DNA of 64,000 nucleotides, taken from the IMG/VR virus record IMGVR_UViG_3300032213_003144, positions 96,001 through 160,000 of that record; one strand, given 5' to 3'. The translations under genes were made by a program, and so were the position numbers. The notes under the pieces were generated by a model. The model saw only the letters and a program-made list of their open reading frames with translations. It did no database searches and had not been told where the DNA came from. This stretch comes from a virus. Every line of letters begins with the position of its first letter. Positions within the stretch are counted from its first letter, which is position 1. Positions 18,047 through 64,000 of the stretch are shown in pieces.

Positions 18047-21000
18047 TTGGTTCCAAAAATGTCAAATGAAGCATTCGAATACAAGTCATCGGCGCACGGC
18101 TCTCAGTCCATCAAAGGAACGGTCAGCCTAGACGAGGCCCAGGGGATAGTCGAATGTTTCGTAGCTGGAATTGGTAATAAAGACTCAGTCGGAGACGTAT
18201 GTGCTTCAGGAGCCTTCACAAAGAGCCTTCTTCGCAGAAAGCCAAGAGTTGTATGGGGCCACAACTGGAATGACCCTATTGGTAAAGTATTGGAAATATA
18301 CGAGGTTGGTCCACAGGACCCACGCCTCCCACTGAAAATGAAACTTGCCGGGATAGGCGGTTTGTTTGCAAAAGTTCAATTTAATCTAAGTTCAGAAAAA
18401 GGAAAAGAAGCATTTGCTAATGTCCACTTTTTCGGAGAAGAACAAGAGTGGTCGATTGGATACAAAACACTAAGAGCTCAGTTTGACCAAAAGTCGCAAG
18501 CAAATATTCTTTACGAAGTTGAACTCTACGAAGTTAGCCCTGTTCTCCACGGAGCCAATCAGCTAACAGGAACAATATCCGTTAAGGCAGATGATTCCGC
18601 CTACGGAGGTTCAGTAGCAATGATGCCGCAAAGAGAAGAGAGCAACGGCTACGAAGAAATGGAGAAGGAACTCTCCAATCTATTCGGTGCAAAAGTTTCT
18701 GTTCATTCAATCGATGGCGACGAGGTCGTATTCACACGCCAAGAGATGAACGGTGCGAAGAAGTACAAGTGCGGCTTCATGAGAAATCAAGGCCGATACA
18801 TGTTCGGAACTCCTGAAGTAATCAATATTCCGCAGTCCCCAGTTCGTTCTCCTCAATCAGCACCAATGCCTGTGGTGAGCGGAAGACCTACTCCACCCAA
18901 CGACCCACAACGCGTCATTAGACCACAACAGATGCCTTCAATACCAGTTGCGATTAAGCCAAGCGACAATGGGCTAATGATGATTCCTCTTCCAGCTGTT
19001 CAGTATGACTCAAACGAAAAGCCGTCCCTGGACAAGGAGGAAGCAGACCTCCGTGATGCGCTGTTAAAGATAGTTTCACGCCACGGCAAATTTAACGAAG
19101 ACTCTAACGGCGTATGGGCTGGATACAGCCCTGCAGAAGAAAACGAAGTAGCACGTATCGGTGTTAAATGCTCAAACTGCGTCTTCTATCAAGGCGGCTC
19201 AAAGTGCAAAATTATTGACATGCCAGTTGAGCCAGAAGGGAAATGCAGATTTGCTGTTATTCCAAATGGGATTGTTTTGAGCAGTGGTTCCAAAGAACTC
19301 GAAGAGCATGTTTCCGAAGCAGAAAATGCAATCATCGATGTACTAGAACTAAAATACCCAGGCGAGTTTGTTCTTGGAATTGTCAGAAATGCAGTTGGTA
19401 AGAAAAAGAAGAAAAGAAATAAATACAAAAATCTTTCAGAGTTTGGTGATGACGACGACATGGGTGAAAAGTCGTACGTAATACCAGTCGAGCCAAGTTT
19501 TGCATTTAGAGTAAAAACAGCCCTTGACCCAATATTCGATTACCACAGAGCAGAGACTTTTGTTGACTCAGAAGGAATAGTGATTACCTCTGGGGTAACT
19601 GAAAATCTCATAGACGCAGTCGATACGGCTCTTCACAACTTAAAAAAAAAATTCTCAGAACATGAAATAGAGGGAAAATCCCTCGGTTACAGAATAGGTC
19701 GGTCGCTTGGTTCGAGGCTCGTAGATAGACCAAACCTCGGTGGTGGTAGGGATAGAAACAACCGTGGCGGCGGTCGTGGATTCGGGATGCCGGATGGCGA
19801 CCTTGACCCCAGGACAAGAGTTGACAAGAATAGGGATGGAACACTTTTTGATAATGTCCCAGGATGGGAACAGCCAGACCCAACCCCAGATGGACCTGGT
19901 TCGATAAATAACCGAAAACTCTCTTCCTCACAAAGAAGAGATGTTGCCAATATTCCGAGCGAGAGCGTAAACCCAGAATCGGTAGACGGTGACGTAATAA
20001 AGAGCCGCAAACCAAGGTATACGGCTGATGACCTTGGTGAAATCCTTGGAGAAAAGAAGAAGCCAACGAAGAAGGCAGTAGCAAAAAAATCTCCTGTTAA
20101 AAAAGAAAAAGTAAAGCGTGGAGAACTTGATTTCGCTAAGGGTCCCAAAAAAGATAAGACACCATCACTATCCTCTGGTGAGGAAAGACCGCCACGTACT
20201 GCAGTTGCAATGCAGATGGACCCAAAGAATTCGAAGCTTGCAAGACAGATTGATTACGACCCACAGAATGGTGACCTCACTGTTTATTACAGAGATGGCA
20301 AAAAAGAAACATTCAATGATGTTCCTTATGACCGCGTGCGTAAGGCTGGATTTGACGACAAGCCAGATGCATTAATCAGTGCACTACAGAGAGAACAAAA
20401 GAAACCACAAGGCAGGATTAGTCTTGCATCTGGGGAGCAAGAAAAGAGACTTACCCGCCACTCTGGTGACCCAAAATTTGAATCACTTGTATCTCCAGAA
20501 GAACTTGAAAAGCGTAAGAAGTTTGAAGAAGTAATTAAAGACTGGAAAGACTCTGGTTACGGATGGGAAGACGTTCCTAGATACAAGCCAGACGTCTACA
20601 AGTCCCCGGATTATTTGCGTGGTAGGGAAATGGGCGTCAATCAGGCCAAAGTTATGTGGCGTGGAGATAGCACGGTAGAGAGACCAAAGGGATTCAACGA
20701 AAAGCAAAAAGCCTCACTTGATTATCAAGAGTGGTATTCACGAATGGTGATGAGGGCTGGAGCTTTTCTAGAAGCATCACGTGGCGATGACAACGAATTC
20801 TACAACGGCATGGAAGATGCCATGCATGAATTCATGTACAACAATAGACCAGATATAACAACCTACAACATCGATGGAGATAGAAAAGAACCGATGGCCG
20901 ACTGGATGCGTCAGTACGGATTCGACCCAGGCTCACCGACTCCATTAAGAAAGAAAAAAGAAGGAAAGAAGAGAAGTTCACTCTCCCTCTCTTCTGGCGC

Positions 21001-24000
21001 AGACGACGATACAAGACCAAACTTTGATGAAGAGAATTACGAAAGTGATACCAACGTAGATTTCTACGACACCCTTCTTGACATGATGGGCCCAGAAGAA
21101 GAAAGACCAAAAGTCACTTCTCGCAAAAAGCCAAAAGACATGAGTGATGAAGAGATTTATCGCAAGAGAACAACAACCGGAGCATCCCTGCAGGATGTTG
21201 CGGAAGAACTTGGTCTAACTAGAATGGAAGTTAGGAAGCGCGAACAACGACACATGCGCAAAATGCGCAATGAAAAAGACGGCGTATCACTTTCTTCTGG
21301 AGCAAGCGATGACTGGGCCACTTCTAGGGGATACGAGCCAGACAGATTCGACCTTCGCGAAACGATGAATCAAATTGGTAGAGGAAACATAATGGCCATA
21401 TCTGGTGGCCGCGTTGAGCGTAGAGGGAATGAAATGATTCTTCCTTCTACAAAAGACCAGCAAGTAGTCATCGGGTACAACTCGGTTCCAGACCTCTACT
21501 ACGTCAGAGCTGAGCAGAAAATAAATACAGGTAAGGACAAGGGAACCAACAGAATTCTTGCGCAATGGGACGAGGTTTATGCTGACGAAATTGGCGAACT
21601 CGCATATCAGGCAAGTCTCAAGCCAGCAAACCTCAATAGTGAGAACAAGGAGTACTGGAAGCTCGGCAAGGGAAATCAATTTGCAGACAGACTCGTTGAT
21701 AGACGTAGCGGAAAGCTCGTAAGCAGAGAATCAAGAAATCTTCCATCAAAGCCAGCGCCAGAGGAAAGCCCAACTCTTTCTTCGGGTGGCAGAGGTCGTG
21801 ACTACTACAACTACGACATAACAACAACCGATGAAGGAAATGGATTACTCGACCAGGTGCATGATTACCTTGAAGAGAACCCCCTAATCAAAGATGACAT
21901 AACAACCGATATTGCAGACATGCTCGGTGGAGATGGAATAGTTGAGGCTAATGGCTTTGACACAAAAAAGGCATTTGACCTGGTTACTGGTGGAGACGAT
22001 GAGTTCCAGGATTATATGGACATCGTTGATGATGCCATGGAGGCCCTAAGTAATGGCTCCCTAGCAAAGCACAAGGCAACCGTTCGCGATACGAATGTAA
22101 GACTTGAGTCAGCAAAGCCAGGCAGTAATGAAGCAGGAAAACTCGAAGCAATCCGTGATAGGTCGTACGAGTGGATTGGCGACATAAACAAGTATTCACG
22201 CGTATCCACAATTAAAGATAAGAAGAATATTGAAGCCAGCGACGTGGCAACAAGAATGATTTCCAAAGAGCAAGATTCGCTCTGGAATGCTCGCGCGTCA
22301 ATAACAGAAAAATATATTGAAGATATTGCTTCAGCTGGAAAAGAATCAAAGCGCCGTGTATCAATCAGCGCAGTAGATACAGACTCTCGCGACATTCCAG
22401 AGTATGATTTAGCTCTCTCGTCTGGCAGTGTTTTTAAGGATAAACCAGCATCAAAAACGCTTTCCGGTAAGGCTGATGGCCTTTCTCTTGCCTCTGGAGA
22501 AAATAAAAAGATTTATGACGAAATAGGTAAGTCCATTCTTGAGGCATTAATTGAGATGGATAAGAACCCAACAGCAACCTATTGGGACGTACCGTGGAGA
22601 ACACCAACCCTATACGCAAGAAACCCAACAAAGAATCGCCTTTATCAGGGAATGAACTCCCTACTGCTTGCCAATGCGCATAGGCAGAATAAGTACAGAG
22701 GAAATTTCTGGGCCGGGAAGACTCAGTGGGCAAAGTTCGGTGGAACAATAAAGAATGGCAAGGATGGAGTAAATATCCTTGTTCCAAGAGAGGGTTCAAC
22801 CGGAAAATACTTTGTCGTACAGACCGTATATAACCTCGATGATATTGAAGGGCTCCCAGATGCATATGTAAAGAAGCTTCTAGATACAGGAAAGGAACTT
22901 CTTGACCCAGCGACAAAGATAAAGGACGCCGAGTCGGTAATGGAGGAAATTAATCCTGTCATCAAGTTTGGCGGAGATGCTGCATACTTCTCAATTACGA
23001 ATGACCATATTCAAATGCCACCATACGAGATGTTTAAGTCTCCAGAGCAGTACTACTCAACCCTACTGCATGAGCTAACACACTGGACTGGCGGAAAGTC
23101 TCGTCTTGGAAGAAAGCAGGTAGGCCGCCAACAGGACAAGAAGGCTTATGCATACGAGGAATTAATTGCAGAAATGGGTTCTTCTTTCCTTCTTGCCGCA
23201 CTTGGCATCGCACCAGAAGTAAGACAAGACCACGTTGTTTATATCAAGAGTTGGATTTCCAACCTTCGCGAGGACCCGGGTGCATTCGTTAGAGCAATGA
23301 CTGAGGCGCAGCAGGCGGCAGACTGGGTCATGGATAGGTCTCCAACAATGAGAAGACTTTCCGGTGTACCTGATAGCGAAAGAAAAGGAAAGCCAGATGC
23401 GGTTGATGCTGGGGAATCCGCAGTCTCAGAAGTAGTTGAAGAGACTAAGGGCTCTGTTACAGCACTCTCATCCGGCTCTCAAGTTGGATTAAGGAAAGCA
23501 AAAGAACTCAGATACTTTGGCGATGAAAAAGAATATGGCTCAGGCATAACTCAAAGAGACTCCAGTGGAAGGATTCTTGATGAATCTGGAGCACTTTCTC
23601 TTTCAAGTGGTGCAAAACCAATCGTCAGCCTTGACGGTAAAACAACGATTCCAAGACTAGACGACTCTGTCTCGTATAGAGAAAAGTATAAGTTCCTTCC
23701 TGATGAATTTGAACCAACAGAACAACAAAAGGCTTCAATAGACACGCTTGTTCATATGCTTGAAAGTGAGACACCAGGGATTGTCGCTATTGGTGCTGGT
23801 GCTGGTTCAGGAAAGACAACCAACCTTAAACAGAATGCTCGTGCAGTTGCCGCACTTTACCCTGGAAAACAAATTTATTACACCGTATTCAATAGAGGAA
23901 ATGCTAAAGACGGAAACAGGGTGATGCCTAGAAATACAGGTGTTGCAACTGGGAACCAAATAGCATATTGGTCACTTGTTCTTGGAACTGGAGACGCCTT

Positions 24001-27000
24001 CTATGGTGCTGGAACAACCAGAAAGATACAACTCGGAGTTGGTCCAAGAGACTCCAAGAAGTTGCGAGGAGCAAAACGTAACACCGTGAACGTTGCAACC
24101 ACGTTTGAGGGAGAAACAAAGGAATTCGCAGGAGAGATACCAGGGTACAGAGAGCTTGGGTACACAAGCTATGACTCTGCACCGAATATCGCAGAACGCC
24201 TTGCTAAAGATGGGATTGTTGACGAAGAAACTGATGATGGTTTTACTATTTCCCAAAATCTCAAAAAAGCTCTTGGCAGGTTTGCTGAAAGCTCGGATGA
24301 GAAGCTGTCAAAACAACATTTCCTACTTCGTGATATAGAGAAAATTCAGGCATTACAAAATGGTGAACCAGTACCAACTGAAGATTCAATCGATGAAAAA
24401 ATGGTTCAATATGCACAAATGCTTTGGGATGAAACAGTTGACCCAAAATCAAACGTGCTTATCCCGCAGGACTATCAAATCAAGATGTGGGCCCTAACAA
24501 ATCCAGACCTTAGGTATGACAAAGGACTGATTGGTCACAGGCCAAACGAAACAGTGTTTGATAAAGTTTTTCTTGGAACCGTTGAGGAAATGAACTCCGG
24601 AAAAATAAAAGTCGGAGACCTTGTAGAATTTAAAATTCCAGAAACTGGAGAAAAAGTTGCAGCAGTAATACGAAAACTAAACCCTCCATCAAAGAAAGAA
24701 ACAAAAAAGGGTGAGCTATCTGGCAGTAGACAAGTAACCGGAACTGTATCGATTGTTTCTGTCACGAGTGATAAGCCTCTTGATGTGTTCATGTTCGACG
24801 AGGCCCAAGACGTAAACCCTGTGTTGGCAAAAGTACTCGCCGATAATGCAAAGAACATGCCGATAATAATGGTTGGCGACTCACGCCAAGCAATCTATGG
24901 GTTCAGAGGAGCCATGGATGCCCTGGAGAAAGCTAATGCAACATTCAGACTTCCTCTAACACGTTCATTTAGGTATGGAGCAATCCCTGCATATTTAGCC
25001 AATGTCGTGCTGATGCAAGGCAATATAGACGATTTTAACTTTTATCAAAACATGGGAACACCCGAAAAAAACATATGGCACCATGTTGTAGGAGAGGCGC
25101 AAAATGTTGTTATAAACGCGCTCAACATAAACGGACCAGATGGGAAAATACTTCCTAAAAAAGAACTTGAAAAGAAACTTAAATTCATAGAAGTTAAATA
25201 CAAACTTGGCGGAAGAGCTGTCGACTTTAAGGGCAAAAACGAAAAAGAAGTAAAAGACATCATTTCAAAACTTTACGACGAACATGTCCCACGCGCTGAA
25301 GGTCAGATAGTTGAGGACATGACTAGTGCTGATGCTGTTCTAACTTCTACCAACTCCGGAGTAATGGTCGAAGCCTTGAAGGTAATCCAGGACGGTATTA
25401 ATGCACATCAAATCGCGTATCTCGACCTAGATGGAATAGAAGATATAAAAAATCCAGAAGAGCTAGCTGGAAGACTAAGAACATTATCCGAGAAATACAC
25501 TCTTGATGGTGTTGCTGTAGACCTTATAGAAATATTGGAAAAAGATGGTAGAGATTCAATGCTCAATGCCGTCAATGAACTTAGAGAAGAATATGCTCCA
25601 GGTGGAGCTGACGGGAAAATACCAGCCATTGGCATACCTGCCGACACACATGAAAAGTTTCTTGATTTCTTCACTCAACTCGACTGGATTATTGGTGACC
25701 TTGATAAGAAGTTTGGAATCGAAGGAAGACCAAAACCATCTAAACTACTTAAAGACGTATGGAGATTTGATAAGAAAAAGGGCAGATACCCATCAAAAGA
25801 TGAGATGCTGGCAAAAATTGACAAGATGATTAAGGGTGGAGAATCAGAACTTCGCACGCTTTACAACCTTGCTTACCCCAAGTCCAAGGATGGAGGGGTA
25901 AGAGGTGATGCAAAAGGGGCAAGATTCTTTAAAGACCTTTTACGTCCACAAGGCCAAAAATATACTGACATAAATGGAACTGAGGTTAAGTACCAAGGCC
26001 TTAGACCAATGCGTGAAGGAATCAATCTTCCGAATATGGAATCTGGTCGAGACCACATAACTACCGAAGAGATGGACAGAGTCGGAAAGCTTAAGCCTGG
26101 AACAAAATCTGGAAGCAGCCAAAAAATTTCCTGGATAATACCCAAGAAGGAAGAGAGCGTATCTGATGGTGAGGTATTCGTAAAACTTCACATCGGAGAA
26201 AACGGAAAGCCATCTGGAGCGTTGATAATTGCAGGCGATGGAGCGCACGGAGGAAAGTACAAAGTCAGAAGATGGAATAAGGCCAAGAAAACCTGGAGCC
26301 CAATCGAAGAGGGGAAACCAGGGAAGATTGACTACCACGGTGATATATCAAAAGTTATAAAAAAGATGAAAGCTGAATACCCAGACGCCGTAATTGAATT
26401 TAGGCAGGGACTAATACAGCAAGTTGGTACAGCTCAGACATTCCCATCAGACATATCTGATGATTTTGTCCCACCAATGAAAGGTGATTTGCCAGATAGT
26501 TCTGTGCCAAGAGCTTCGCTTCCAGGGTTCTTCATACAAGGAAAAGACAGCGAAGAAACTGCGCGTCTTGCCAATGAACTCGGAAACAGGGTTAGACAAC
26601 TTGCCACGGAAGGAAACACGGATACCGACATTATGACGGTTCATGTTTCCAAGGGCAGGGAGTGGAAGAGGGTCAGACTCGCTGATGATTTCAAAAATCC
26701 TGAAGACATGGTCCCAGTAATACCAGAAGAAGAATTAGCAAAGTTAAGTCCAAAGGACAGACTTGCTGTCGAGAGACAGCTCCAATTGATGCGCAGAGAA
26801 GAGCACAACAAGGTATACATTGCAATAACCAGAGCTCAAGAGCAAATAGATATTGGCGCAGTTCTTGCAAAACTTTATTTTGATGATTCACAAAACGCAT
26901 CTATAAAAAGTGCAAAAGATAAAATTGCAGAAAATCCAGATGGAATATATGACGAGCTTCAGGCTCCTGCTGGTTTCTATGTTCCGTATTCTGGTGATAC

Positions 27001-29131
27001 AGAAGCACGCGATGCTGCCAGAAAAGAACGCAGAAAGAGATTGGATGAGTCTTTCGATAGATACGTCAAGTCACAAGGAAAGACCAAAGATGTCGCTCCA
27101 GAAGAAGATGATGAACCAGAGGTGGAGGACGAATCTGGCGGTTTTGACTCTGGTGACCCTGATTTTGTTGATGTTGCTGGACCTGATGATGATGGAGCTG
27201 AAGAATTCGACGAAGAAGATGGCGACGTGCAGTCACTCTCCCTTTCTTCAGGAGCAAAGAAGAAGAAAACCAATAGGGCAAATAGGCGTCTTCCATTTAG
27301 TGAGCAAGAGAGACAAAGCCTTGCCGATGGAGACATATTGCGCTCAAAGAAAATACCCAAGAAGCGCAAACCAGCTCCGTCAAAAGAGGAGTTTGACGAC
27401 CTAGCTCTTGCCTCTGGAGCCAATACACCAGAGGGAAGATACGCCAGAAGACTGAGGTCGATAAGCCTTTCCAGCGGCAACAATGAGCTTGGCGCTGGAG
27501 CACAGAATCAAAGAATAAGTGGAAAGAGATTCGCCCGCAATATTTCCGGACCAAAAGACCTTGCATCGATAAGAGTTGATGGTGACCCAAGTAAAGACCC
27601 AAACGCAAAGAGAAAAATTGAATATGCGATGAGTTTCTGGCGTGGTGTCAGGGAACGCGGAATTGCTTTTGACCCCCAAGACGCATCACAAGATAGAAAG
27701 TCGATAGAAATTAATAACGCCATTTCTTCTGTGTCAAAATCCATGGCTACGCGACCAAAAGCCAAAATTGGTAAAGTTTCACAGAATCAAATAAAAGATG
27801 ATGTGAACCCAGACGAGTGGTTTGTCCCAGTATCAAAACTTAGGGATGCAATCAGAATTCCAACAGAATTCTCCAACTCCCCCGCGGACCCATCCAATCC
27901 AAATAGCAGAATGATTGCACGATGGACCCAAACAAGGCCATTAAGCAACGAAGAGTTGGGCAAGATGCTCTCTCTCAGCAAGACCGACATTGCAAAACTG
28001 TCAGACGATGATGCAGGAATAACCCACGACTCGGTTAGATTCCTGCTTGCGGCCATGGGGCAGCAGGAAGGTTTTGAGGCATGGAACTTTTTTGCTCCAA
28101 CATCTACTACCGAAGATGGAGTTTCCGCCATGTCTACTTCTGAGAAGTTCGTAGAGAATCTCGGAAGAGCCAACATGCGAGACAGGTTCATCATCGAAAC
28201 CTTTGGAAAAGACGCTTTCCCTTACTGGATTGACAAAGATGAGAATACCGTCATCGGCCAAAAGGAGTACTCATCGCTAGGCGAGGTCAGCGAGATGTCG
28301 AAGTTCAGGTCATCGGGTCTGTTTAGTAATAAGAGGAACGAATCAAACTTCTCCTCAACAGCCGAGGAGATGCTTCTTGAAGAGGCAGTATTTGGTGGAG
28401 ATGACACTCCAAGCGACATGGTTAAGCAGTCTGTCGTGGAAGCAGCTTCAGCCCCATCAGACAAGACCAGCCGAGAGCAGTTTGACGTAGACCAGCTCCT
28501 TGAGTCGTTGGGTATCGATAAGAGTGATAAGTGGCATGAAGAGCTGAAGAGGAGAATGGTCGAGTCTTTCGGGGTTGACGATGTCGGCCTGAATACGAGA
28601 GAGATTGCTAGAAACTGGGAGGCCGGTGGAGTCCCAACTACATACATAAATGAGATGATTAGAACAGGGATGATTCCTGATGCAAAGTCGGTATGGAAGA
28701 AAGATGAATCTGGCAAAAAGCTAGACCAAGAGCTGGCAGCATCTAAGCACTCCGTGTATGAAGCCCTGTATGAATTTACTCAGTCAAAGCACGCTGCTGA
28801 TAAAGCCAAAAACACTAGACGGAATAGGGACTACATCCTTAATTCTTCTGACTTCACGGTCTCCCATAAGGGTGTCGCTGCCAGAAAGGGAGCCACATTC
28901 TCAAAGAAAACTGGTGATGAAAGAAGATTCAGTCAGGGCGAACTACAGAATGTTGTAAATCGTTTTAATGAAATTTTTGGAACTAACTACAAGATTGATG
29001 ACATCTTTAGTGCTGAACAGTTGCGCAATGCAACAAAGAGATTGAGAGAGGAAGGCAGGACTCTGTATGGAGATGACGCCTCCGAACTCGGTAAAAGAGT
29101 TATCCTTAAGAAAGATAAAGACAAGAAGTAA
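18047..29131 (+). CDS. Giant prohead protease (HK97 family) fusion carrying KTSC, HTH, ArdC-zincin and SF1 (UvrD-like) helicase domains
   Basis: Protease: WGHNWNDPIG, WSIGY, EVSPVLHGAN. KTSC-like: IDYDPQNGDLTVYYRDG. ArdC-like: PWR..LYQGMN..LLHELTHWTG..YAYEELIAE. Helicase: AGAGSGKTT, DEAQD, VGDSRQAIYGFRGA, TVHVSKGREW, YIAITRA. Start may be ATG 18059. Confidence 0.9.
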   Translation: MVPKMSNEAFEYKSSAHGSQSIKGTVSLDEAQGIVECFVAGIGNKDSVGDVCASGAFTKSLLRRKPRVVWGHNWNDPIGKVLEIYEVGPQDPRLPLKMKLAGIGGLFAKVQFNLSSEKGKEAFANVHFFGEEQEWSIGYKTLRAQFDQKSQANILYEVELYEVSPVLHGANQLTGTISVKADDSAYGGSVAMMPQREESNGYEEMEKELSNLFGAKVSVHSIDGDEVVFTRQEMNGAKKYKCGFMRNQGRYMFGTPEVINIPQSPVRSPQSAPMPVVSGRPTPPNDPQRVIRPQQMPSIPVAIKPSDNGLMMIPLPAVQYDSNEKPSLDKEEADLRDALLKIVSRHGKFNEDSNGVWAGYSPAEENEVARIGVKCSNCVFYQGGSKCKIIDMPVEPEGKCRFAVIPNGIVLSSGSKELEEHVSEAENAIIDVLELKYPGEFVLGIVRNAVGKKKKKRNKYKNLSEFGDDDDMGEKSYVIPVEPSFAFRVKTALDPIFDYHRAETFVDSEGIVITSGVTENLIDAVDTALHNLKKKFSEHEIEGKSLGYRIGRSLGSRLVDRPNLGGGRDRNNRGGGRGFGMPDGDLDPRTRVDKNRDGTLFDNVPGWEQPDPTPDGPGSINNRKLSSSQRRDVANIPSESVNPESVDGDVIKSRKPRYTADDLGEILGEKKKPTKKAVAKKSPVKKEKVKRGELDFAKGPKKDKTPSLSSGEERPPRTAVAMQMDPKNSKLARQIDYDPQNGDLTVYYRDGKKETFNDVPYDRVRKAGFDDKPDALISALQREQKKPQGRISLASGEQEKRLTRHSGDPKFESLVSPEELEKRKKFEEVIKDWKDSGYGWEDVPRYKPDVYKSPDYLRGREMGVNQAKVMWRGDSTVERPKGFNEKQKASLDYQEWYSRMVMRAGAFLEASRGDDNEFYNGMEDAMHEFMYNNRPDITTYNIDGDRKEPMADWMRQYGFDPGSPTPLRKKKEGKKRSSLSLSSGADDDTRPNFDEENYESDTNVDFYDTLLDMMGPEEERPKVTSRKKPKDMSDEEIYRKRTTTGASLQDVAEELGLTRMEVRKREQRHMRKMRNEKDGVSLSSGASDDWATSRGYEPDRFDLRETMNQIGRGNIMAISGGRVERRGNEMILPSTKDQQVVIGYNSVPDLYYVRAEQKINTGKDKGTNRILAQWDEVYADEIGELAYQASLKPANLNSENKEYWKLGKGNQFADRLVDRRSGKLVSRESRNLPSKPAPEESPTLSSGGRGRDYYNYDITTTDEGNGLLDQVHDYLEENPLIKDDITTDIADMLGGDGIVEANGFDTKKAFDLVTGGDDEFQDYMDIVDDAMEALSNGSLAKHKATVRDTNVRLESAKPGSNEAGKLEAIRDRSYEWIGDINKYSRVSTIKDKKNIEASDVATRMISKEQDSLWNARASITEKYIEDIASAGKESKRRVSISAVDTDSRDIPEYDLALSSGSVFKDKPASKTLSGKADGLSLASGENKKIYDEIGKSILEALIEMDKNPTATYWDVPWRTPTLYARNPTKNRLYQGMNSLLLANAHRQNKYRGNFWAGKTQWAKFGGTIKNGKDGVNILVPREGSTGKYFVVQTVYNLDDIEGLPDAYVKKLLDTGKELLDPATKIKDAESVMEEINPVIKFGGDAAYFSITNDHIQMPPYEMFKSPEQYYSTLLHELTHWTGGKSRLGRKQVGRQQDKKAYAYEELIAEMGSSFLLAALGIAPEVRQDHVVYIKSWISNLREDPGAFVRAMTEAQQAADWVMDRSPTMRRLSGVPDSERKGKPDAVDAGESAVSEVVEETKGSVTALSSGSQVGLRKAKELRYFGDEKEYGSGITQRDSSGRILDESGALSLSSGAKPIVSLDGKTTIPRLDDSVSYREKYKFLPDEFEPTEQQKASIDTLVHMLESETPGIVAIGAGAGSGKTTNLKQNARAVAALYPGKQIYYTVFNRGNAKDGNRVMPRNTGVATGNQIAYWSLVLGTGDAFYGAGTTRKIQLGVGPRDSKKLRGAKRNTVNVATTFEGETKEFAGEIPGYRELGYTSYDSAPNIAERLAKDGIVDEETDDGFTISQNLKKALGRFAESSDEKLSKQHFLLRDIEKIQALQNGEPVPTEDSIDEKMVQYAQMLWDETVDPKSNVLIPQDYQIKMWALTNPDLRYDKGLIGHRPNETVFDKVFLGTVEEMNSGKIKVGDLVEFKIPETGEKVAAVIRKLNPPSKKETKKGELSGSRQVTGTVSIVSVTSDKPLDVFMFDEAQDVNPVLAKVLADNAKNMPIIMVGDSRQAIYGFRGAMDALEKANATFRLPLTRSFRYGAIPAYLANVVLMQGNIDDFNFYQNMGTPEKNIWHHVVGEAQNVVINALNINGPDGKILPKKELEKKLKFIEVKYKLGGRAVDFKGKNEKEVKDIISKLYDEHVPRAEGQIVEDMTSADAVLTSTNSGVMVEALKVIQDGINAHQIAYLDLDGIEDIKNPEELAGRLRTLSEKYTLDGVAVDLIEILEKDGRDSMLNAVNELREEYAPGGADGKIPAIGIPADTHEKFLDFFTQLDWIIGDLDKKFGIEGRPKPSKLLKDVWRFDKKKGRYPSKDEMLAKIDKMIKGGESELRTLYNLAYPKSKDGGVRGDAKGARFFKDLLRPQGQKYTDINGTEVKYQGLRPMREGINLPNMESGRDHITTEEMDRVGKLKPGTKSGSSQKISWIIPKKEESVSDGEVFVKLHIGENGKPSGALIIAGDGAHGGKYKVRRWNKAKKTWSPIEEGKPGKIDYHGDISKVIKKMKAEYPDAVIEFRQGLIQQVGTAQTFPSDISDDFVPPMKGDLPDSSVPRASLPGFFIQGKDSEETARLANELGNRVRQLATEGNTDTDIMTVHVSKGREWKRVRLADDFKNPEDMVPVIPEEELAKLSPKDRLAVERQLQLMRREEHNKVYIAITRAQEQIDIGAVLAKLYFDDSQNASIKSAKDKIAENPDGIYDELQAPAGFYVPYSGDTEARDAARKERRKRLDESFDRYVKSQGKTKDVAPEEDDEPEVEDESGGFDSGDPDFVDVAGPDDDGAEEFDEEDGDVQSLSLSSGAKKKKTNRANRRLPFSEQERQSLADGDILRSKKIPKKRKPAPSKEEFDDLALASGANTPEGRYARRLRSISLSSGNNELGAGAQNQRISGKRFARNISGPKDLASIRVDGDPSKDPNAKRKIEYAMSFWRGVRERGIAFDPQDASQDRKSIEINNAISSVSKSMATRPKAKIGKVSQNQIKDDVNPDEWFVPVSKLRDAIRIPTEFSNSPADPSNPNSRMIARWTQTRPLSNEELGKMLSLSKTDIAKLSDDDAGITHDSVRFLLAAMGQQEGFEAWNFFAPTSTTEDGVSAMSTSEKFVENLGRANMRDRFIIETFGKDAFPYWIDKDENTVIGQKEYSSLGEVSEMSKFRSSGLFSNKRNESNFSSTAEEMLLEEAVFGGDDTPSDMVKQSVVEAASAPSDKTSREQFDVDQLLESLGIDKSDKWHEELKRRMVESFGVDDVGLNTREIARNWEAGGVPTTYINEMIRTGMIPDAKSVWKKDESGKKLDQELAASKHSVYEALYEFTQSKHAADKAKNTRRNRDYILNSSDFTVSHKGVAARKGATFSKKTGDERRFSQGELQNVVNRFNEIFGTNYKIDDIFSAEQLRNATKRLREEGRTLYGDDASELGKRVILKKDKDKK

Positions 29132-29271
29132 GACGAAGGTCCAGGGTCTACATTTCCATCTAAACCACTAAATATTGCTAATCCATTCCAGAGGCGCGTG
29201 GTAGGTTATAATTTAGACCATTAACAAAAGGTAACACCAACTGGTGATTGCCTGTAAATTTCAGGAGTCAT

Positions 29272-30924
29272 ATGAGCTACGACGAAAAGGCCAATGTAAG
29301 CATCGATGCTGATGGAAACGTGCTGAAGTGCGCCAAGGGTGCCGCCCCTACCGAATGTGGCTTTGTAAAGGGTTCAGAGTTGTGCGCAAAATGTGGCGCG
29401 ATACCTTTACAGATGAAGATGGTCCCGATGGAAGACATGGTCGACGAGGACATGGTCGACGCCGAAAAGCCAATGAAGAAAAAGAATAAGAAGAAAATGA
29501 TTTCACTTCCAGATGGAAGCAATGAAGAAGAAGATGATGACGAAGAAGATGATGAAGTACTGGGCGACGGAGAGATTCCGGAAGATGCCGTTGGCATGAC
29601 AAAGCCAGACCTCAAGAAGCCAAGCCAAAAAGGCATGGACATGCAAATGGACGCCATGATGGCAGAGGGTGAAGAAGAAGACGAAGATGACGAAGAAGAA
29701 GACGAAGAAGAAATAACCGCCGCAGAGGGAATGGAAGACGAAGACATGTCTGAAGAGGAGCTTGAAAAAGCGCTCAACTGGATGAAGAGTCGTCGCATGG
29801 CCGAAAAGGGCGACATGGAAGTTGACGAAGAAATCGATGAAGAAGTCTCGGCAGAAACAGAAGTTCCTGAAGATGAAATGTCGGAAGACGACATCATGAA
29901 AGCATTGAATTACGTTCGCAAAATGAAGAAAATGCACGAGAAGGGTATTGACCCAGAGGAAGAAACCGACGAGCAAGTACTTTTCGATGCAGCAGACAAG
30001 GATTGGAATGACCTGAGAGAAGAGCGAATTGCATCGCTTGGAATCAAGTCGGAAGAAATTGGTCCTGACGGCTTTGTTTGTGCTCTTGACAGAAAAGCAC
30101 ATCCAGCAGGAATGTCGGTATGTGATGACTGCCCGGGCGGATGTGTTTCCGAAAAGGGACTCCCAGGACTTCTCCACGTTGAAGGTCTCGCCGAAAAAGC
30201 ATTTGATGGTTTTGTGGTTGACTCTGGTTATTCATCAGATGCCGACATGTTCGTCATCGACGTTCAGACAAAGGACGGCTCAGTCAAGGAAGTATTCGTT
30301 GACGGAACAACTGCGGAAATTATGGGATTCCATAAACTTGACTCAGAAGAGTTTGAACAAAAATCAGACTACACAAGTTTGAAACTTGTCGATTTTTCGG
30401 AAGCAGCAGAGATTGCTGTTAAGTCAATCGAGGGCCACGTAGTTGCTGTTGAGCCAGATGTTTTTGAAGGCTTCGATGCATACGCTGTAGAAATTGACGG
30501 AATTGACGGAAAGTCGTATGACGTTTTTGTTGCTTTGGACGGAGAAATTCTAGGTTACGACAAGTACGAGCCTGAAGAAGCAGAAGAGATTGAAGCAGAA
30601 GCAGCAGAGATTGCTCTTAAGAGAGCATTCACCGATGAGCAGAGAGAGTCGATGTCCAAAGAGGGCTCGGCAATGTCGGATGGCTCGTACCCAATTGCAT
30701 CTGAGAACGACCTACGAAATGCTGTTCAGGCTTTTGGTAGAGCAAAGGATAAAGACAAAGCTAAGCGTCACATCATGAAGAGAGCACGTGAGCTAAAGTT
30801 GGAGAGTCTTATCCCTGCAAATTGGCTCGCAGGAAGCAAGGAAAAGAGTGACGAGGTTGTAAATGATGCAGATTTCATGGCGGCCCTTGTTGAATTCCAG
30901 CTTCTCGAAAATAACATCGACTAA
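29272..30924 (+). CDS. Acidic head-associated protein (scaffold-like) with Cys clusters and PepSY-like repeats
   Basis: AGGAG SD before ATG 29272; D/E tracts; two Cys clusters; EVFVDGTTAEI and DVFVALDGEIL PepSY-like ends; C-terminal DGSYPI...DLRNAVQAFGRA. Confidence 0.6.
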   Translation: MSYDEKANVSIDADGNVLKCAKGAAPTECGFVKGSELCAKCGAIPLQMKMVPMEDMVDEDMVDAEKPMKKKNKKKMISLPDGSNEEEDDDEEDDEVLGDGEIPEDAVGMTKPDLKKPSQKGMDMQMDAMMAEGEEEDEDDEEEDEEEITAAEGMEDEDMSEEELEKALNWMKSRRMAEKGDMEVDEEIDEEVSAETEVPEDEMSEDDIMKALNYVRKMKKMHEKGIDPEEETDEQVLFDAADKDWNDLREERIASLGIKSEEIGPDGFVCALDRKAHPAGMSVCDDCPGGCVSEKGLPGLLHVEGLAEKAFDGFVVDSGYSSDADMFVIDVQTKDGSVKEVFVDGTTAEIMGFHKLDSEEFEQKSDYTSLKLVDFSEAAEIAVKSIEGHVVAVEPDVFEGFDAYAVEIDGIDGKSYDVFVALDGEILGYDKYEPEEAEEIEAEAAEIALKRAFTDEQRESMSKEGSAMSDGSYPIASENDLRNAVQAFGRAKDKDKAKRHIMKRARELKLESLIPANWLAGSKEKSDEVVNDADFMAALVEFQLLENNID

Positions 30925-51307: not shown

Positions 51308-51313
51308 CTATAC

Positions 51314-52081: not shown

Positions 52082-52088
52082 ATACCGA

Positions 52089-54014: not shown

Positions 54015-54101
54015 GTTTCCATTCCTGTAATTGGCTAGTGATGAGAGAGACGAGTGTACCGTAAGGATGAATACTGAAATGGTCTAGCATCCAACTAATT
54101 T

Positions 54102-54437: not shown

Positions 54438-54456
54438 CTACTTATTATACAGCTTG

Positions 54457-55089: not shown

Positions 55090-55171
55090 CGTGAGATATT
55101 AAGGGAAAATCTCCACCCCCAGGGGAAGCCCCATCCCCTACGACCCAAATCCATCGACTAGAGTCTTCTTT

Positions 55172-55465: not shown

Positions 55466-55483
55466 AAACACATCTGGACGGTC

Positions 55484-55891: not shown

Positions 55892-55927
55892 GATGTCGTC
55901 CTTACCACTTGACTAAACGGGGGATAC

Positions 55928-56260: not shown

Positions 56261-56269
56261 GTTACAGAA

Positions 56270-58719: not shown

Positions 58720-59050
58720 AAATAATAGTCAAATGAATAATGGTGTTGTCCATTCAAACATCGGTCCCGCAATGGATAAATTGGCAGAAACAATGGATAT
58801 GACCATTCAACCAATAGAAAAAGACGATGACGGTCCAGCTCAGGTTCAGCAATTAATCAGATGCACCGATACCGACAGGGACAGATGGAGACAGGCGTCT
58901 GCGCTATCCAATATGACTGTTTCTGCATGGATTAGACAAACACTTAACACCGAGGCAAAAACTCTCCTTGAGTGTGAACACCCATTGAACGAAATGTTGT
59001 TGTACCCGTGGGCAAAAATATGCAAAAAATGCAATACTAGAATATTGTAG
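58706..59050 (+). CDS. Hypothetical protein (RHH-like plus Cys cluster)
   Basis: RW..AS...MTVSAWIR..LN, CEHP, CKKC. Confidence 0.55.
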   Translation: MMSSENNSQMNNGVVHSNIGPAMDKLAETMDMTIQPIEKDDDGPAQVQQLIRCTDTDRDRWRQASALSNMTVSAWIRQTLNTEAKTLLECEHPLNEMLLYPWAKICKKCNTRIL

Positions 59051-59107
59051 TTTTAGCTAATTATAAACTCCTGGCCTTTTGGGCATAGTGGTATCATTGC
59101 AAGCGAA

Positions 59108-62100
59108 ATGTCTTCGCAAAATAATGAGTTTGAGATTCCCTTTAGCCAGTCACGCCGTGGCAAAAAAGAGGAAATTAACGTTAAGGCAATAGGCCGGCGA
59201 ATTGGCTCATCGGCAGCAAGCAGACTCGTTGACCGACCGAATATAGGTGGTAGAAGAAGGCGCGGAACTCGTGGACTTGGCATCCCAGATGGAGACCTGA
59301 ATCCCCGCACTAGAGTTGATGTCGACGGAGATGGAACAATCTTCGATGGGTGGCCTGGCTGGGAGCAACCAGACCCAACCCCATCATCGATGCCTAATGC
59401 TCCAAAATTATCTCTATCTAGTGGAGAAAAAGATAAAAAACCATCTTTCCCACGCAAACCTACATATGGCCCATTCATTGGAAGTGCTGAAGACAGATTT
59501 GGCAAAGCAAAAACATGGGAAGAGTTTAAAGAAATTTACGACGACACCGAAATAAACTTCTTTGACTACGAAACAACTGGTCTTGTATTTGACGAATTCA
59601 GAGAGCCGTCGGCCAATGGTCAGCCAGTTCAGTTTGGCGTTGTGAGAATGAAGGGCGATAAGGAAATAGCTCGCTTGAATCTGTTTATGAACCCAAAAGA
59701 GCCGCTTGGCGAATGGTCGGCAAGAGAATTAAAAGATAGAGACGGAAACCAGCTAACAGACGAATGGCTATCCAGACAGATGTCCATGGCCGAAGCTCAC
59801 AGGGCACTCGTTGAATTCGCTGGAGAAGATGCAATATTTGGTGTGCAGAATGCTGCGTTTGACAAAGACGTTCTAGAACAGACGCTTAGCGATGCCGGAA
59901 TTGAATGGCGTCCCGGTGGATACCTAGATACAAAAGACATAGCAGACATGACTCTTCCTAAATGGTCTGAAGAAAATCAGGATGGGCCGTTCGTCATTGA
60001 CTCTGAAGGAAACAAAAAACCATCAAATGGCCTTGCAGCAATAACCAAATACCTAGAGGTTGAGCTAGGGGAAAAACACCACACTGCAGATGCTGATGCA
60101 CAGGCTACCGGCCTAGTGATGTCGGCGATAATAAATGGTGCCATTGAGAGAGACTGGCCGACAAATCTTCTTGATTCAGAAAAAAGAAAAACAAAACTGC
60201 AGAAAGATAATGAAAAATTTGATGCAGAAATAAAAAAATTTAGAGCAGCAAAAGAAGAATTTATTAAAGCTGCAAAGCAAAACGAACAGCCAAGCTTGTC
60301 GTCTGGTTCAAAAGAGCGCCCAATAATAAAACTAGAAAACGACAAAAAGCGCCCAGTGATATCGTTCCAGAAAGATGAACGAGAATTGCTAAAAAAACAT
60401 CGTTCAACAAAATACAAATATGGCGACAAGAGTGCACTTGGTGGAGAAATTAAGTCTACTAAAACCAACTGGCTAAAGGGTTTGTCAAGTGAGCAAATTT
60501 CAGAACTCATAGTTCCCAGTTCGCAAGAAGAGCACTACAGAATGTGGGTTGACGATATAGCCCCAGGCGCATATGAGACACCGTCAATCAATGAGGCATT
60601 CAGGAAATATTATGACGAGATGATGGCAGGAAATCCATGGGATGAGGTTGACTATTCTCCGGACAACGTCCAGGCTTCACGGGATGCAGTAAAAGCACTG
60701 CTTGACTCATCACCAGCCGTTAAATGGGCCTTTGAAAACCATGGGGCTCCATCCATTGGTGTGATGTCAGCAAAAGGAATTGAAACCTACGAAGCAATAC
60801 CATCTGTAAGTCAAAAATTGACCGCGCTGCAGAATGAAAGATTTTTAGCTAAAAAACCATTTGTCAGGGCAAGACTTTCTCCTGGAACCAATTTGCTGAT
60901 ATTTAACAAGCGTGCCCTCATTGATAGAGAGGGCTCGATTCCCGGGGAAGAGACTCCGCTCCTATGGTCAGACGCGCATATGCCACTAATAACCGATGCG
61001 CATATAGATAAATCAATCACTGGAACGATTGTTCATGAATGGGGACACTGGCTTGTTTTTAGAGCAGTAAAAGACACAGAGCAGATAAAAAGGAATAGAA
61101 CCAACTTCTTCGGCTCGGGGGACCTTAACGACGATAATTACATCAAAGCCCTCGCCCTATCTGAGTACTATTCAAAAACAGAAAAAAACAATGGACTTAT
61201 GGATTTATGGAATAAAAAAGTTCCCATAGAAGACTCCAGAGAGGTTCCGCGTGTTCTGACTTCATATGGTCACGTAAACGAGGCAGAAACATTCGCCGAA
61301 GGTGTAGTTGCATACTTTCATCCAAATCCAGAAGTAAGAAAAAATGCAATAAATGAAAAGTTGCGCAACGATATTGAGACATTCCTGGGAGATGGGGACG
61401 GAAAGAAACCGTGGGACGATAATGAATCCATAGAGCTTGCTATATCCTCTGGGCGGACATCTAAGCAGCGTTTGGAGAAGAGAGAAGCCAATTCAACCTC
61501 ATCGGAACAGGCATTTTCGTCAATGCCAGAGGATGACAGGGAATTGGCCCGACTTGACTACTTCTTGTCACTCTCTTCTGGCGCAATAATTCCCGAATCC
61601 GGCTCGCGCAAACTAGAAATAATAAACGATTTTGATGATAGAAAGAACGACAATTTTGCGACTCCGATACGCGTTGTGAGCTTTAAGGACAGTAACGGGA
61701 AAGATGTTGAGTACACGATATTTGCCACTGGGAAATTTGGCGACAGCGTTTACGTTTTTGAAAAGACAAAACTAGATAAATACGTATCAGAAAAAGAAGA
61801 AATGATTTCTCTCGCCAATGGGGTTCCATTTGAGGAGGTTGGCATATCCGTCATAAGTACAATGACAGACGAAAGAGAAATACGAGATAAAAAAAATGGC
61901 CTAGTTGGCGTAATGTCTGTCATGCCTCCGTCGGGTGACGGAGAAACATCCGTAGTACACGAAATTGCAATCGACGACAAACATAAAAGAAGAGGACTCG
62001 CCTCTGCTCTGTTTAAATACCACAGAGACTCATGGCCGGACCAAGACCTGCATCACAGCTCGGCACTTTCTGATGATGGGAGAGCGTTTGCTGCGGCTAC

Positions 62101-64000
62101 CCCGTTTGACGGAACGTCCAATCCTCCAGTCGGAAATCTTCAAAACGATTTAACCAATTTCGTAAGAGGTTTGATGGAAGTGCTTCCTGACGATGAAAAC
62201 GATAACGACATATCACTCTCCTCTGGGGCGAAGTATTCAGAAATTGTGAAGAGGCAGCCAAATCCTTCACGTGAGCAAATTGATTCTTCTAGAAACTTTA
62301 AGGATTTCGTTCAACTTGACGAACTAAGAAAAGAAGACGTATGGGCGACCACCGGCGTTGATGATTTCGGTGATGACATAACGGAAATGGTGGACTCAGA
62401 AGATAGGGCCAACATAAAGAAAGATATCAAGCAGTCAATTGAAACGTTGTTCTCTTACGAGATTGAGCTTGACGACAGTATTGTTGTAACGTCCAATTCT
62501 GGAGAAAAAATCAATCTCGGAAACAGGATAAAAATTACAGCTGTTGTTGAAGACGTTCAGGTCTCTGCTCTAGAAGAAAAAGATATCTCCGAACAGATTA
62601 ACGAGATAGGGCACATGCTTATCGGAGAAGATAAGAAGCCGCTCACAAGGGTGGATGTAAAATTCAAGATATCCCCAGCCGATTCCGCGGCTACGGAAAA
62701 ACTGCTCGCCTTAGGTGTGCCGGAGAGTCTTATCGATATCGACAATCCAAAAACAGACATTGAGCTTGGGCGCGCTCATAGAGCGATATTTACGGACGGC
62801 AGCAAGACGATAGTGTCCCATGAGTCAATATTCATTAGTAATAGCGCTCGCGGTAACGGTTTGGCTAGTGTATTTAATGCCAGAAATGAGTCGCTATATA
62901 GAGAGATTGATGCCGATTCAATAATAACCCAAGGCATGTCCTCATCGTCTTCAGACCAAATCGGCGCTACCCATTGGGCCAGAAATGGTTTTACTATCCT
63001 CGGCGAGCCATCGAAGCAGAGATTCATTGGCGTAATCGATGATGCCATAACCAACAAACCAGGGTCATTCTCTGAAGAGGAGAGGAAGAGAATATCCTCG
63101 CTATACAAAAAAGATAAAAAGACTGGGAAATTCACCTCTTCTGCAACCCCAGAAGAACTAATTGACTTCAGCGAAGCAGACGAAGTGTTTGGCCTCTCCA
63201 ACAACGGTGATGGAGAAGCAATATTTTTCACTCGCGAAGTCTCAAAGCCAAGCGGAATCAATAAGGCAATGAACAGAATGAGGAGAAGGGTTGGTTCGGA
63301 AAGAACTGAATCGATTTCTCCGTCGCTTTCTTCTGGGGCTTTTGATTACCGCGGGCTCCATGGGGCTCCAGGTCGTGGCTCTGGAGCACCACTGCACGAC
63401 CTGATATCCCCAGACTATTCGGTATACCCGGAAGACGTATATTCATCAAACGCTATTAAATACTACGGGGTTGGAGACGATAACCTTGATGCATCAGCAT
63501 TCAACTTGATTAGAAGCTTTAAGGGTAAGCCAAACGCAGAGGTCACTATATATAGGGCTGTGCCTACTTCTCCTGAGACGAGAATTTCTCGTTTGGAAAA
63601 AGAAAAAGCTCACATAATGAAGTATGGAAAAGTACCAAAGAGCGCCGTAACCAATCTAGGACCAAGCGAGTACTACGAAAAAATTAGCAATGAAATAGAT
63701 GAGTTGAAAAACAACCCAGAAGTCAGGTCTTCCGTTTCTTCTGGGGACTGGGTTACCCCATTTAGACAATATGCAGTAATGCATGGAGATGGTGCTCTTC
63801 GTGGAGATTATGAAATAGTAAAGAAGCGTGTAAAAGCAAAGAATGTCTATACGGACGGAAATTCATGGCTTGAGTGGGGCTATGACGATAGTAAGGGTTC
63901 GTTGTCTTTGTCGTCTGGGGAGCAACCTAAAATAAACCTATCAGATGATGAAAAAAGAGAGATAATACGTCTCGCATCTCAAAGGACGGATAGTTTCTCG
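59108..64000 (+). CDS. Giant polyvalent protein (partial, at least 1631 aa): DEDDh exonuclease, zincin, two GNATs, ART-like domain
   Basis: Segments translated by hand in one frame: FFDYETTGL..QNAAFD..HHTADADA; VHEWGH (H at 61034)..SYG..EAETFAE; HKRRGLASAL; ARGNGLAS..GATHWARNGF; IYRAV..GDWVT..EWGY. It is absent from the ORF track, consistent with no in-window stop. Confidence 0.85.
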   Translation, partial: MSSQNNEFEIPFSQSRRGKKEEINVKAIGRRIGSSAASRLVDRPNIGGRRRRGTRGLGIPDGDLNPRTRVDVDGDGTIFDGWPGWEQPDPTPSSMPNAPKLSLSSGEKDKKPSFPRKPTYGPFIGSAEDRFGKAKTWEEFKEIYDDTEINFFDYETTGLVFDEFREPSANGQPVQFGVVRMKGDKEIARLNLFMNPKEPLGEWSARELKDRDGNQLTDEWLSRQMSMAEAHRALVEFAGEDAIFGVQNAAFDKDVLEQTLSDAGIEWRPGGYLDTKDIADMTLPKWSEENQDGPFVIDSEGNKKPSNGLAAITKYLEVELGEKHHTADADAQATGLVMSAIINGAIERDWPTNLLDSEKRKTKLQKDNEKFDAEIKKFRAAKEEFIKAAKQNEQPSLSSGSKERPIIKLENDKKRPVISFQKDERELLKKHRSTKYKYGDKSALGGEIKSTKTNWLKGLSSEQISELIVPSSQEEHYRMWVDDIAPGAYETPSINEAFRKYYDEMMAGNPWDEVDYSPDNVQASRDAVKALLDSSPAVKWAFENHGAPSIGVMSAKGIETYEAIPSVSQKLTALQNERFLAKKPFVRARLSPGTNLLIFNKRALIDREGSIPGEETPLLWSDAHMPLITDAHIDKSITGTIVHEWGHWLVFRAVKDTEQIKRNRTNFFGSGDLNDDNYIKALALSEYYSKTEKNNGLMDLWNKKVPIEDSREVPRVLTSYGHVNEAETFAEGVVAYFHPNPEVRKNAINEKLRNDIETFLGDGDGKKPWDDNESIELAISSGRTSKQRLEKREANSTSSEQAFSSMPEDDRELARLDYFLSLSSGAIIPESGSRKLEIINDFDDRKNDNFATPIRVVSFKDSNGKDVEYTIFATGKFGDSVYVFEKTKLDKYVSEKEEMISLANGVPFEEVGISVISTMTDEREIRDKKNGLVGVMSVMPPSGDGETSVVHEIAIDDKHKRRGLASALFKYHRDSWPDQDLHHSSALSDDGRAFAAATPFDGTSNPPVGNLQNDLTNFVRGLMEVLPDDENDNDISLSSGAKYSEIVKRQPNPSREQIDSSRNFKDFVQLDELRKEDVWATTGVDDFGDDITEMVDSEDRANIKKDIKQSIETLFSYEIELDDSIVVTSNSGEKINLGNRIKITAVVEDVQVSALEEKDISEQINEIGHMLIGEDKKPLTRVDVKFKISPADSAATEKLLALGVPESLIDIDNPKTDIELGRAHRAIFTDGSKTIVSHESIFISNSARGNGLASVFNARNESLYREIDADSIITQGMSSSSSDQIGATHWARNGFTILGEPSKQRFIGVIDDAITNKPGSFSEEERKRISSLYKKDKKTGKFTSSATPEELIDFSEADEVFGLSNNGDGEAIFFTREVSKPSGINKAMNRMRRRVGSERTESISPSLSSGAFDYRGLHGAPGRGSGAPLHDLISPDYSVYPEDVYSSNAIKYYGVGDDNLDASAFNLIRSFKGKPNAEVTIYRAVPTSPETRISRLEKEKAHIMKYGKVPKSAVTNLGPSEYYEKISNEIDELKNNPEVRSSVSSGDWVTPFRQYAVMHGDGALRGDYEIVKKRVKAKNVYTDGNSWLEWGYDDSKGSLSLSSGEQPKINLSDDEKREIIRLASQRTDSFS

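Follow-up and report, generated by a model that had tools for sequence, protein, structure and literature searches.

A short tag between the modules of three giant phage proteins as a putative processing site

Introduction

Why does a peptide of only four residues recur, hardly changed, between otherwise unrelated domains of three giant proteins encoded by one phage? The question is raised by a window of 64,000 nucleotides, bases 96001-160000 of the 170,425-bp IMG/VR virus record IMGVR_UViG_3300032213_003144 (completeness 100% by CheckV), whose plus strand carries three very long open reading frames (ORFs), here called giants A, B and C, punctuated by the motif [LI]-[SA]-S-G, here called the tag. 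The evidence described below supports the view that A, B and C are polyvalent proteins, chains of unrelated enzyme and DNA-binding modules with disordered linkers in between, and that selection maintains the tag as a short linear motif in these inter-module linkers. As to its function, we infer with moderate confidence that the tag is a site of endoproteolytic processing.

Both ingredients of this proposal are already published. Processing of polyvalent proteins by their MPTase domains, before, inside or after packaging, was put forward as an idea by Iyer et al. 2017 (PMC5512222), and head proteases are known to cut ejection proteins at short motifs, as does the prohead protease gp245 of phage SPN3US at the motif AXE (PMC10052503).

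The tag in giants A, B and C

The three giants are encoded as follows.

18047-29131, plus strand: giant A, 3694 residues, an S78 domain followed by about 13 modules, with 13 tags
30945-39044, plus strand: giant B, 2699 residues, with 3 tags and the zincin motif HEIAH at 32625-32639
59108-64000, plus strand: giant C, 2583 residues, continuing past the window end, with 9 tags and the zincin motif HEWGH at 61034-61048

A sequence-only reading of the window had listed 23 copies of the tag, and all of them (13 in A, 3 in B and 7 in the part of C inside the window, the full-length protein carrying 9) were found in place. When each protein was shuffled 5000 times, the mean number of copies was 0.40, 0.30 and 0.24 for A, B and C, respectively, and the maximum was 5; the enrichment over the shuffles is 30-60 fold. 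The most over-represented four-residue word of the three proteins taken together is LSSG, with 20 occurrences against 0.31 expected. These two results rule out chance or low complexity as an explanation, and the enrichment is confined to the giants, the rest of the 170-kb genome and the other frames containing only scattered single copies. Among the copies, serine is encoded by both TCN and AGY codons, glycine by four codons and leucine by six, so the constraint acts on the peptide and not on the DNA, as the same reading had argued. Homologues of A, B and C and the tape measure protein make up the motif-rich set in three complete genomes; the exceptions are in G003, where a fourth giant ORF (2106 residues) has one copy and the homologue of C is a short ORF of 1210 residues.

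Position in the linkers

The tags of A alternate with its recognizable modules.

18146-18577, plus strand: Peptidase_S78 (HK97-type prohead protease), residues 34-177 (PF04586, 42.9 bits, cut-off 21)
19277-19288, plus strand: tag A-411 (V-L-S-S-G), at the end of a Cys-rich domain, the weakest copy
19715-19888, plus strand: module of about 58 residues (RLVDRPN...PGWEQPDPTP), residues 557-614, recurring at the N-terminus of C (tblastn, 64% identity over 76 residues)
20168-20179, plus strand: tag A-708, pLDDT <50, breakpoint of a module deletion in L005, L009 and L012
20423-20434, plus strand: tag A-793 (L-A-S-G), pLDDT <50, the other end of that deletion
20987-20998, plus strand: tag A-981, pLDDT <50, L-S-S-G columns at least 90% conserved in the alignment
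21290-21301, plus strand: tag A-1082, pLDDT <50
21776-21787, plus strand: tag A-1244, pLDDT <50
22415-22426, plus strand: tag A-1457, pLDDT <50
22487-22498, plus strand: tag A-1481 (L-A-S-G), pLDDT <50
22505-23299, plus strand: ArdC-N (residues 1487-1579; PF08401, 46.9 bits) and MPTase-PolyVal zincin (residues 1627-1751; PF18818, 132.8 bits, cut-off 27.5), with HELTH at 23069-23083
23465-23476, plus strand: tag A-1807
23600-23611, plus strand: tag A-1852
23732-26848, plus strand: UvrD-like helicase region (PF00580, PF13245, PF13361)
27242-27253, plus strand: tag A-3066
27407-27418, plus strand: tag A-3121 (L-A-S-G)
27467-27478, plus strand: tag A-3141, followed by the C-terminal module of A

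An AlphaFold2 model of residues 690-1490 of A (A:690-1490) has a mean predicted local distance difference test (pLDDT) value of 54.8, with folded blocks at 66-90. All seven tags of this region lie in coil with pLDDT <50 between folded blocks, and none of the six long low-confidence segments is without a tag; since 43% of the residues have pLDDT <50, a placement of seven out of seven would be expected by chance with a probability of about 0.003. The model of C:1-1100 (9 rows, mean pLDDT 42.8, 69% low-confidence) is too poor to place the five copies it covers, so that the mapping of tags onto predicted domain boundaries stands for A:690-1490.

The earlier claim that the tags bracket domains is borne out in the modelled linkers of A and holds only in part in B, where some domain boundaries have no copy. 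The helicase is indeed free of tags, with no copy in the 1214 residues between A-1852 and A-3066. Regarding the domain names first assigned by eye, S78, ArdC-N, MPTase-PolyVal and UvrD of A and RNase_T of C score above their Pfam cut-offs, Sigma70_r4 and KTSC of A and GNAT and the zincin of C are recovered only below them, and ART finds no Pfam support. The tags of B and C are given here for comparison.

31776-31787, plus strand: tag B-278, not kept in the G002 and G003 orthologues
34719-34730, plus strand: B-1259, L-S-S-S, aligned with L-S-S-G of the G002 and G003 orthologues
35088-35099, plus strand: tag B-1382, at the end of a block conserved with G003
37866-37877, plus strand: tag B-2308 (L-A-S-G)
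59222-59383, plus strand: N-terminal module of C common to A, residues 39-92 (tblastn), with the first tag directly after it
59414-59425, plus strand: tag C-103, at the boundary of a high-scoring segment pair with G002 and G003
60296-60307, plus strand: tag C-397
61442-61453, plus strand: tag C-779 (I-S-S-G)
61571-61582, plus strand: tag C-822
62216-62227, plus strand: tag C-1037; the next module precedes the exonuclease module in G002
63326-63337, plus strand: tag C-1407
63908-63919, plus strand: tag C-1601

The L-S-S-S of B-1259 either has decayed from a full tag or is a variant that can be tolerated. The C-terminal module of B (residues 2386-2696) is a separate, adjacent ORF in G003 (C1:100891-102405 and 102426-108653), which may reflect a gene fission near a junction. 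In A and C, tags also occur as tandem pairs or triplets 20-55 residues apart (22415-22498, 23465-23611, 27242-27478 and 61442-61582), flanking the ArdC/MPTase and helicase modules on either side and preceding the GNAT-like module; the fragments between them measure 24, 45, 55, 20 and 43 residues, and short spacer peptides would be released if these sites were cut. The module of about 58 residues shared by A and C, RLVDRPN...PDGDL.PRTRVD...PGWEQPDPTP, includes a DxDxDG-like stretch and is also found in the A homologues of G002 and G003. By analogy with the capsid-targeting sequence of T4, it could be a virion-targeting or anchoring piece that is removed at the tag.

Conservation and lineage-specific flanks

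A scan of IMG/VR with A:1-420 returned 420 related loci, the best 80 of which were kept and examined. Every giant ORF (at least 800 residues) examined in these loci carries the same punctuation, as do 20 database homologues of the ArdC/MPTase module. The core of the tag is nearly invariant down to 58% identity in A:1-420, while identities between modules fall to about 25-45%, and when A:690-1490 is aligned with 22 relatives, the L-S-S-G of A-981 forms an island of at least 90% conservation amid indel-rich linkers. The 3289-residue head-module protein of the cultured Actinomycetia phage DSL-LC01 has no repeated tag.

The residues that flank the core differ from lineage to lineage. The clade of the window has [LPIV]-[SA]-L-S-S-G-[AES], most other clades have x-R-L-S-S-G-[KRA], and one has x-K-L-S-S-G-[RK]. 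In the A homologue of L064 (3850-12852), L-S-S-G is replaced by F-S-S-G, F-A-S-G and three copies of T-I-S-G, and the first position therefore seems to accept Phe in some lineages. In the phage studied here, all three giants and the tape measure have flanks of one flavour; G002 has a mixed A, with B and C of the R/K type. A flavour that shifts in concert over about 25 sites of a genome is not explicable by independent drift and points to a shared trans-acting reader or some other shared constraint, and the diversity of codons rules out gene conversion as the cause of the uniformity.

The protein that extends this pattern beyond the giants is the tape measure.

2-1543, minus strand: N-terminal 514 residues of the 1648-residue tape measure, recognized by synteny (sheath, tube, chaperone, then this gene), running off the left edge of the window

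Its tag, P-S-L-A-S-G-A at residue 586, falls about 215 nt beyond that edge. The L-[SA]-S-G column is kept in this phage and four relatives, within a Gly/Pro-rich stretch that ends the conserved N-terminal block and whose flanks have diverged, and it follows the local flavour, being S-R-L-A-S-G-G in G001. The tag is consequently not limited to head cargo. Four relatives have a second tape measure tag, [FL]-[AS]-S-G, near residue 40; this phage has K-K-L-G-S-R there (L-G-S-R being residues 36-39, window 1427-1438, minus strand), the copy having been lost.

Module exchange at the tag

The sequence-only reading had asked whether homologues swap domains at the motif, and deletions, replacements and permutations with ends at tags are present in homologues of both A and C. 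Across 13 divergent A homologues, 17% of the internal ends of BLAST blocks lie no more than 5 residues from a tag, against 3.3% for random positions, an excess that may be partly due to alignments extending up to the conserved island. Individual cases are sharper. The KTSC module between A-708 and A-793 is exactly missing in L005, L009 and L012, and a different module takes its place in L076. A:793-985 is duplicated in L041, where the second occurrence ends at a tag, and the C-terminal module of A (A:3083-3653) sits in the middle of the protein in L078, between tags 1341 and 1772. In G002, the C modules 102-386, 399-792 and 1037-1383 are all kept but rearranged, and the blocks end at tags.

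In L005, the DNA at the junction joins the upstream flank of A-708 to the downstream flank of A-793, and these mixed flanks place the breakpoint inside the motif. Such breakpoints, shared by L009 and L012, and the permutations that end at tags are what would be expected if the tag had no reader and were a junction cassette that persists through in-frame recombination between its copies. We consider this very improbable: DNA identity between copies is merely about 6-9 of 12 nt, conservation holds at the amino-acid level over deep divergence, the tag of the tape measure lies away from any point of module exchange and yet is conserved and follows the lineage flavour, and concerted shifts of the flanks in four proteins need a common selective agent.

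Cutting or docking

If the tag has a reader, the reader need not be a protease. The giants could remain intact like the virion RNA polymerase (vRNAP) of phage N4, the tag serving as a docking site for a partner in packaging, threading or chaperoning, or as a site of serine modification. Strict conservation in disordered linkers combined with a genome-wide flavour would suit any trans-acting reader, the tape measure must traverse the tail channel as the presumed cargo must, and N4 vRNAP, ArdC and TraC1 are all transferred unprocessed (PMC5512222). We nonetheless regard a non-proteolytic role as distinctly unlikely, given that tandem tags 20-55 residues apart resemble redundant cut sites with spacers, that the modules behave as independent, exchangeable units, and that each giant has protease domains of its own. 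These domains, which we count in favour of cleavage, are the intact S78 domain of A and the HExxH zincin motifs HELTH in A (MPTase-PolyVal), HEIAH in B, and HEWGH and HEFMH in C.

In the processing mechanism that we favour, a junction motif [L/F/M]-[S/A]-S-G with lineage-specific flanks would be read by one trans-acting endopeptidase per genome, yielding about 28 pieces from the three giants and severing the tape measure at one point. A would probably be carried into the procapsid by its N-terminal S78 domain, and cutting may take place after ejection into the host, and not solely inside the head.

Which enzyme could read the tag?

The fused S78 prohead protease is one candidate, and the sequence-only reading had likened the system to T4 gp21 and phiKZ gp175, in which one code marks capsid and cargo. 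The genes that bear on this comparison are the following.

15872-17950, plus strand: portal protein (PF04860, 170.7 bits)
29248-30924, plus strand: acidic scaffold-like protein, 558 residues, no tag; 50% identity over 84 residues between its C-terminal domain and the C-terminus of the GMA6 protease-scaffold protein
44156-45523, plus strand: major capsid protein (MCP), HK97 fold, with an N-terminal delta-like region (PF05065, 139.5 bits)

On the plus strand, the portal gene is followed by giant A, the acidic 558-residue protein, giant B, five ORFs of unknown function and the HK97-fold MCP. A and B are thus encoded between the portal and MCP genes, a position that fits packaging into the head and would suit an S78 protease that reads the tag and cuts its cargo in the maturing capsid. 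This protease is fused to the N-terminus of A in every homologue examined and is intact, with His72 and Ser136 invariant in 30 sequences, and the domain is 76-99% identical across the family, being as conserved as the L-S-S-G core. Specificity for a short motif is known for this protease fold (PMC10052503). The sole candidate found for an A homologue without S78, L122 (P0018), was discarded as merely a frame change in a poly-A run: on this 180-kb ENA contig (L122:9880-10010), the S78 and cargo ORFs are parted within a poly-A (Lys-Lys-Lys) run, and the separation stems from faulty assembly or from a slippery site.

The analogy with T4 and phiKZ fits poorly, as the MCP, the portal and the scaffold-like protein are not tagged. 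The motif scan of the portal found a single IASG at residue 384, which is at chance level, and no linker copy. The MCP has no full tag, only L-S-S-H at residues 95-98, which is conserved as L-[ST]-S-[HR] in the MCP alignment and could be taken as a point in favour of S78; we rejected it as a link to S78, as it has no Gly, is expected by chance (about 0.4 occurrences of the tripeptide L-[SA]-S in a protein of this size, by our estimate) and is away from the HK97-equivalent site. Near that site, at about residue 152, where the mature HK97 chain starts to align, nothing tag-like was seen in the MCP. The tape measure, which is not in the head, nevertheless has a conserved tag of local flavour, and the S78 domains of lineages with Ser flanks differ from those with Arg/Lys flanks only by V/I and L/I/V. 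No solved structure homologous to the S78 domain was found by sequence, and a complex prediction of the domain with the linker A:962-1001 gave a score of 0.00 and hence no verdict. Cutting of the cargo by the fused S78 inside the maturing capsid is, on balance, unlikely; it is no more probable than the action of a second protease or cleavage that follows ejection.

The infected cell after ejection is presumably the sole compartment shared by the tape measure and the presumed head cargo, which would also allow a host protease to cut the tag once the proteins have entered the cell, and lineage-specific flanks could follow different hosts. We think this quite improbable, as the phage itself encodes at least five protease domains; moreover, we know of no host protease of such specificity.

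A phage zincin is favoured over S78 by the fact that the tape measure is tagged and the MCP, portal and scaffold-like proteins are not, and we rank a zincin as somewhat more likely than S78, and S78 as somewhat more likely than a host enzyme. Zincins usually prefer a bulky hydrophobic residue at S1', and the Leu, Phe or Met at the first position of the tag would fit such a preference. The MPTase-PolyVal domain of A is, tentatively, the first candidate reader. A further candidate protease, judging by its motifs, is a 517-residue protein encoded at genome positions 24737-26290 (L090:738-2291), in a non-structural region, and conserved in four of five relatives; it combines a HELMH zincin motif near its N-terminus with a vWA-like MIDAS motif, D-A-S-G-S, in its C-terminal part. 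The LSSG near its C-terminus was set aside as a chance occurrence, as the G002 and G003 orthologues do not have it.

Several observations weigh against a phage endopeptidase that cuts packaged giants at the tag. Docking or modification would equally account for a linear motif that is strictly conserved. Every genome has at least four phage zincins, which makes the choice of one a guess, and the switch between Ser and Arg/Lys flanks is accompanied in S78 by the conservative changes given above and in the ArdC/MPTase module by no clade-separating conserved column, a pattern that favours neither enzyme. The tags of B are sparser than those of A and C, leaving fragments of 278, 1104, 926 and 391 residues. 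The packaging of B and C is presumed. B is located in the head module, and giant C lies 14 kb further on than the MCP gene, directly after a primase-helicase gene, adjoining replication and not head genes.

Genome setting

Megablast with the window gave no match among cultured phages. By identity (41-48%), the relatives of the MCP and the prohead protease are those of Gordonia and Brevibacterium phages, and the host is therefore probably an actinobacterium; the hosts of the related phages are probably freshwater Actinobacteria. The minus strand carries the genes for the large terminase, recombination, the tail sheath, the tube and the tail chaperone together with that of the 1648-residue tape measure.

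Relation to known systems

The giants resemble the polyvalent proteins of Iyer et al. (PMC5512222) in that A and C each contain several unrelated domains, A has the MPTase hub (PF18818), and ArdC-N, MPTase-PolyVal, helicase, nuclease and GNAT-like modules are combined in chains encoded by a phage beside its virion genes. They differ in the tag, since no conserved inter-module peptide is described in PMC5512222 and here a single one runs through three giants and the tape measure, and in the place of the protease, assemblin-like peptidases being C-terminal according to PMC5512222 and S78 being N-terminal here. The very large MPTase-bearing effectors N4 vRNAP and P1 DdrB/DarB are packaged in the head and injected (PMC5512222), as A, B and C may be; N4 vRNAP enters the head intact and DdrB undergoes a single cut (PMC5512222), and neither has a repeated junction tag.

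With T4 gp21 (L/I-x-E), phiKZ gp175 and SPN3US gp245 (A-x-E; PMC10052503, PMC5694885), the phage shares a short motif present in several putative virion proteins, including presumably ejected ones, and a prohead protease with intact catalytic residues, which here is fused to the putative cargo. Tal of the lactococcal phage Tuc2009 is reported to be cleaved at a Gly-rich sequence, G-G-S-S-G, a case given no weight here. In those phages, the motif also marks capsid, portal and scaffold and its cleavage mostly removes N-terminal propeptides, whereas here the tag stands between the modules of multi-enzyme proteins and in a tail protein, and not in the MCP, portal or scaffold-like protein.

Protease-scaffold fusions of related actinophages are Orf19 of Gordonia phage GMA6 and gp13 of Brevibacterium phage Cantare, whose S78 domain is 41% identical to A:29-186, the capsid proteins being 48% identical; the C-terminal domain of GMA6 Orf19 is in addition 50% identical to residues 443-526 of the 558-residue protein after A. 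In these two phages, the protease, an acidic region and the C-terminal domain form one protein of 418-485 residues (485 in GMA6), with no cargo and no repeated tag. From this comparison, about 3500 residues of cargo appear to have been inserted downstream of the protease in an ancestral gene for protease and scaffold, the scaffold-like part being separate here. That S78 is fused to a scaffold-like protein in related actinophages is the best argument we have for A entering the procapsid with its protease.

A more distant parallel is offered by the polyproteins of positive-strand RNA viruses, with their 3C/3CL sites, which also combine a long ORF, an embedded protease and a short junction site repeated in disordered linkers. 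In contrast to these, the present proteins belong to a DNA phage with ordinary expression, their apparent purpose is the delivery of many enzymes as one packaged chain, and their cleavage is a proposal. We found no report in the printed literature of a strictly conserved junction tag, of lineage flavours in its flanks, of its presence in the tape measure and absence from the capsid, or of its role as a seam for module exchange.

Conclusions

In its most complete form, the favoured processing model holds that freshwater phages of a widespread family have a dedicated protease, distinct from that of capsid maturation, which reads a genome-wide junction code that can be tuned by lineage and converts three injected chains and the tape measure into about 30 effectors only in, or en route to, the host, the tag also being an evolutionary seam for swapping modules. 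Taken as a whole, this is possible and rather doubtful.

Polyvalent proteins are thought to be the first weapons delivered into the cell, and how a chain of 300-400 kDa with a dozen enzymes is activated was left by Iyer et al. as a set of alternatives, a question that a defined four-residue junction tag makes directly testable. The tag provides a rule for parsing giant phage ORFs into modules, many of which belong to no known family, and illustrates how phages trade effector modules along a shared seam. If a specific protease is its reader, enzyme and tag together could serve as an orthogonal cleavage tool; under the complete model above, the system would be a DNA-phage counterpart of the polyprotein strategy of RNA viruses.

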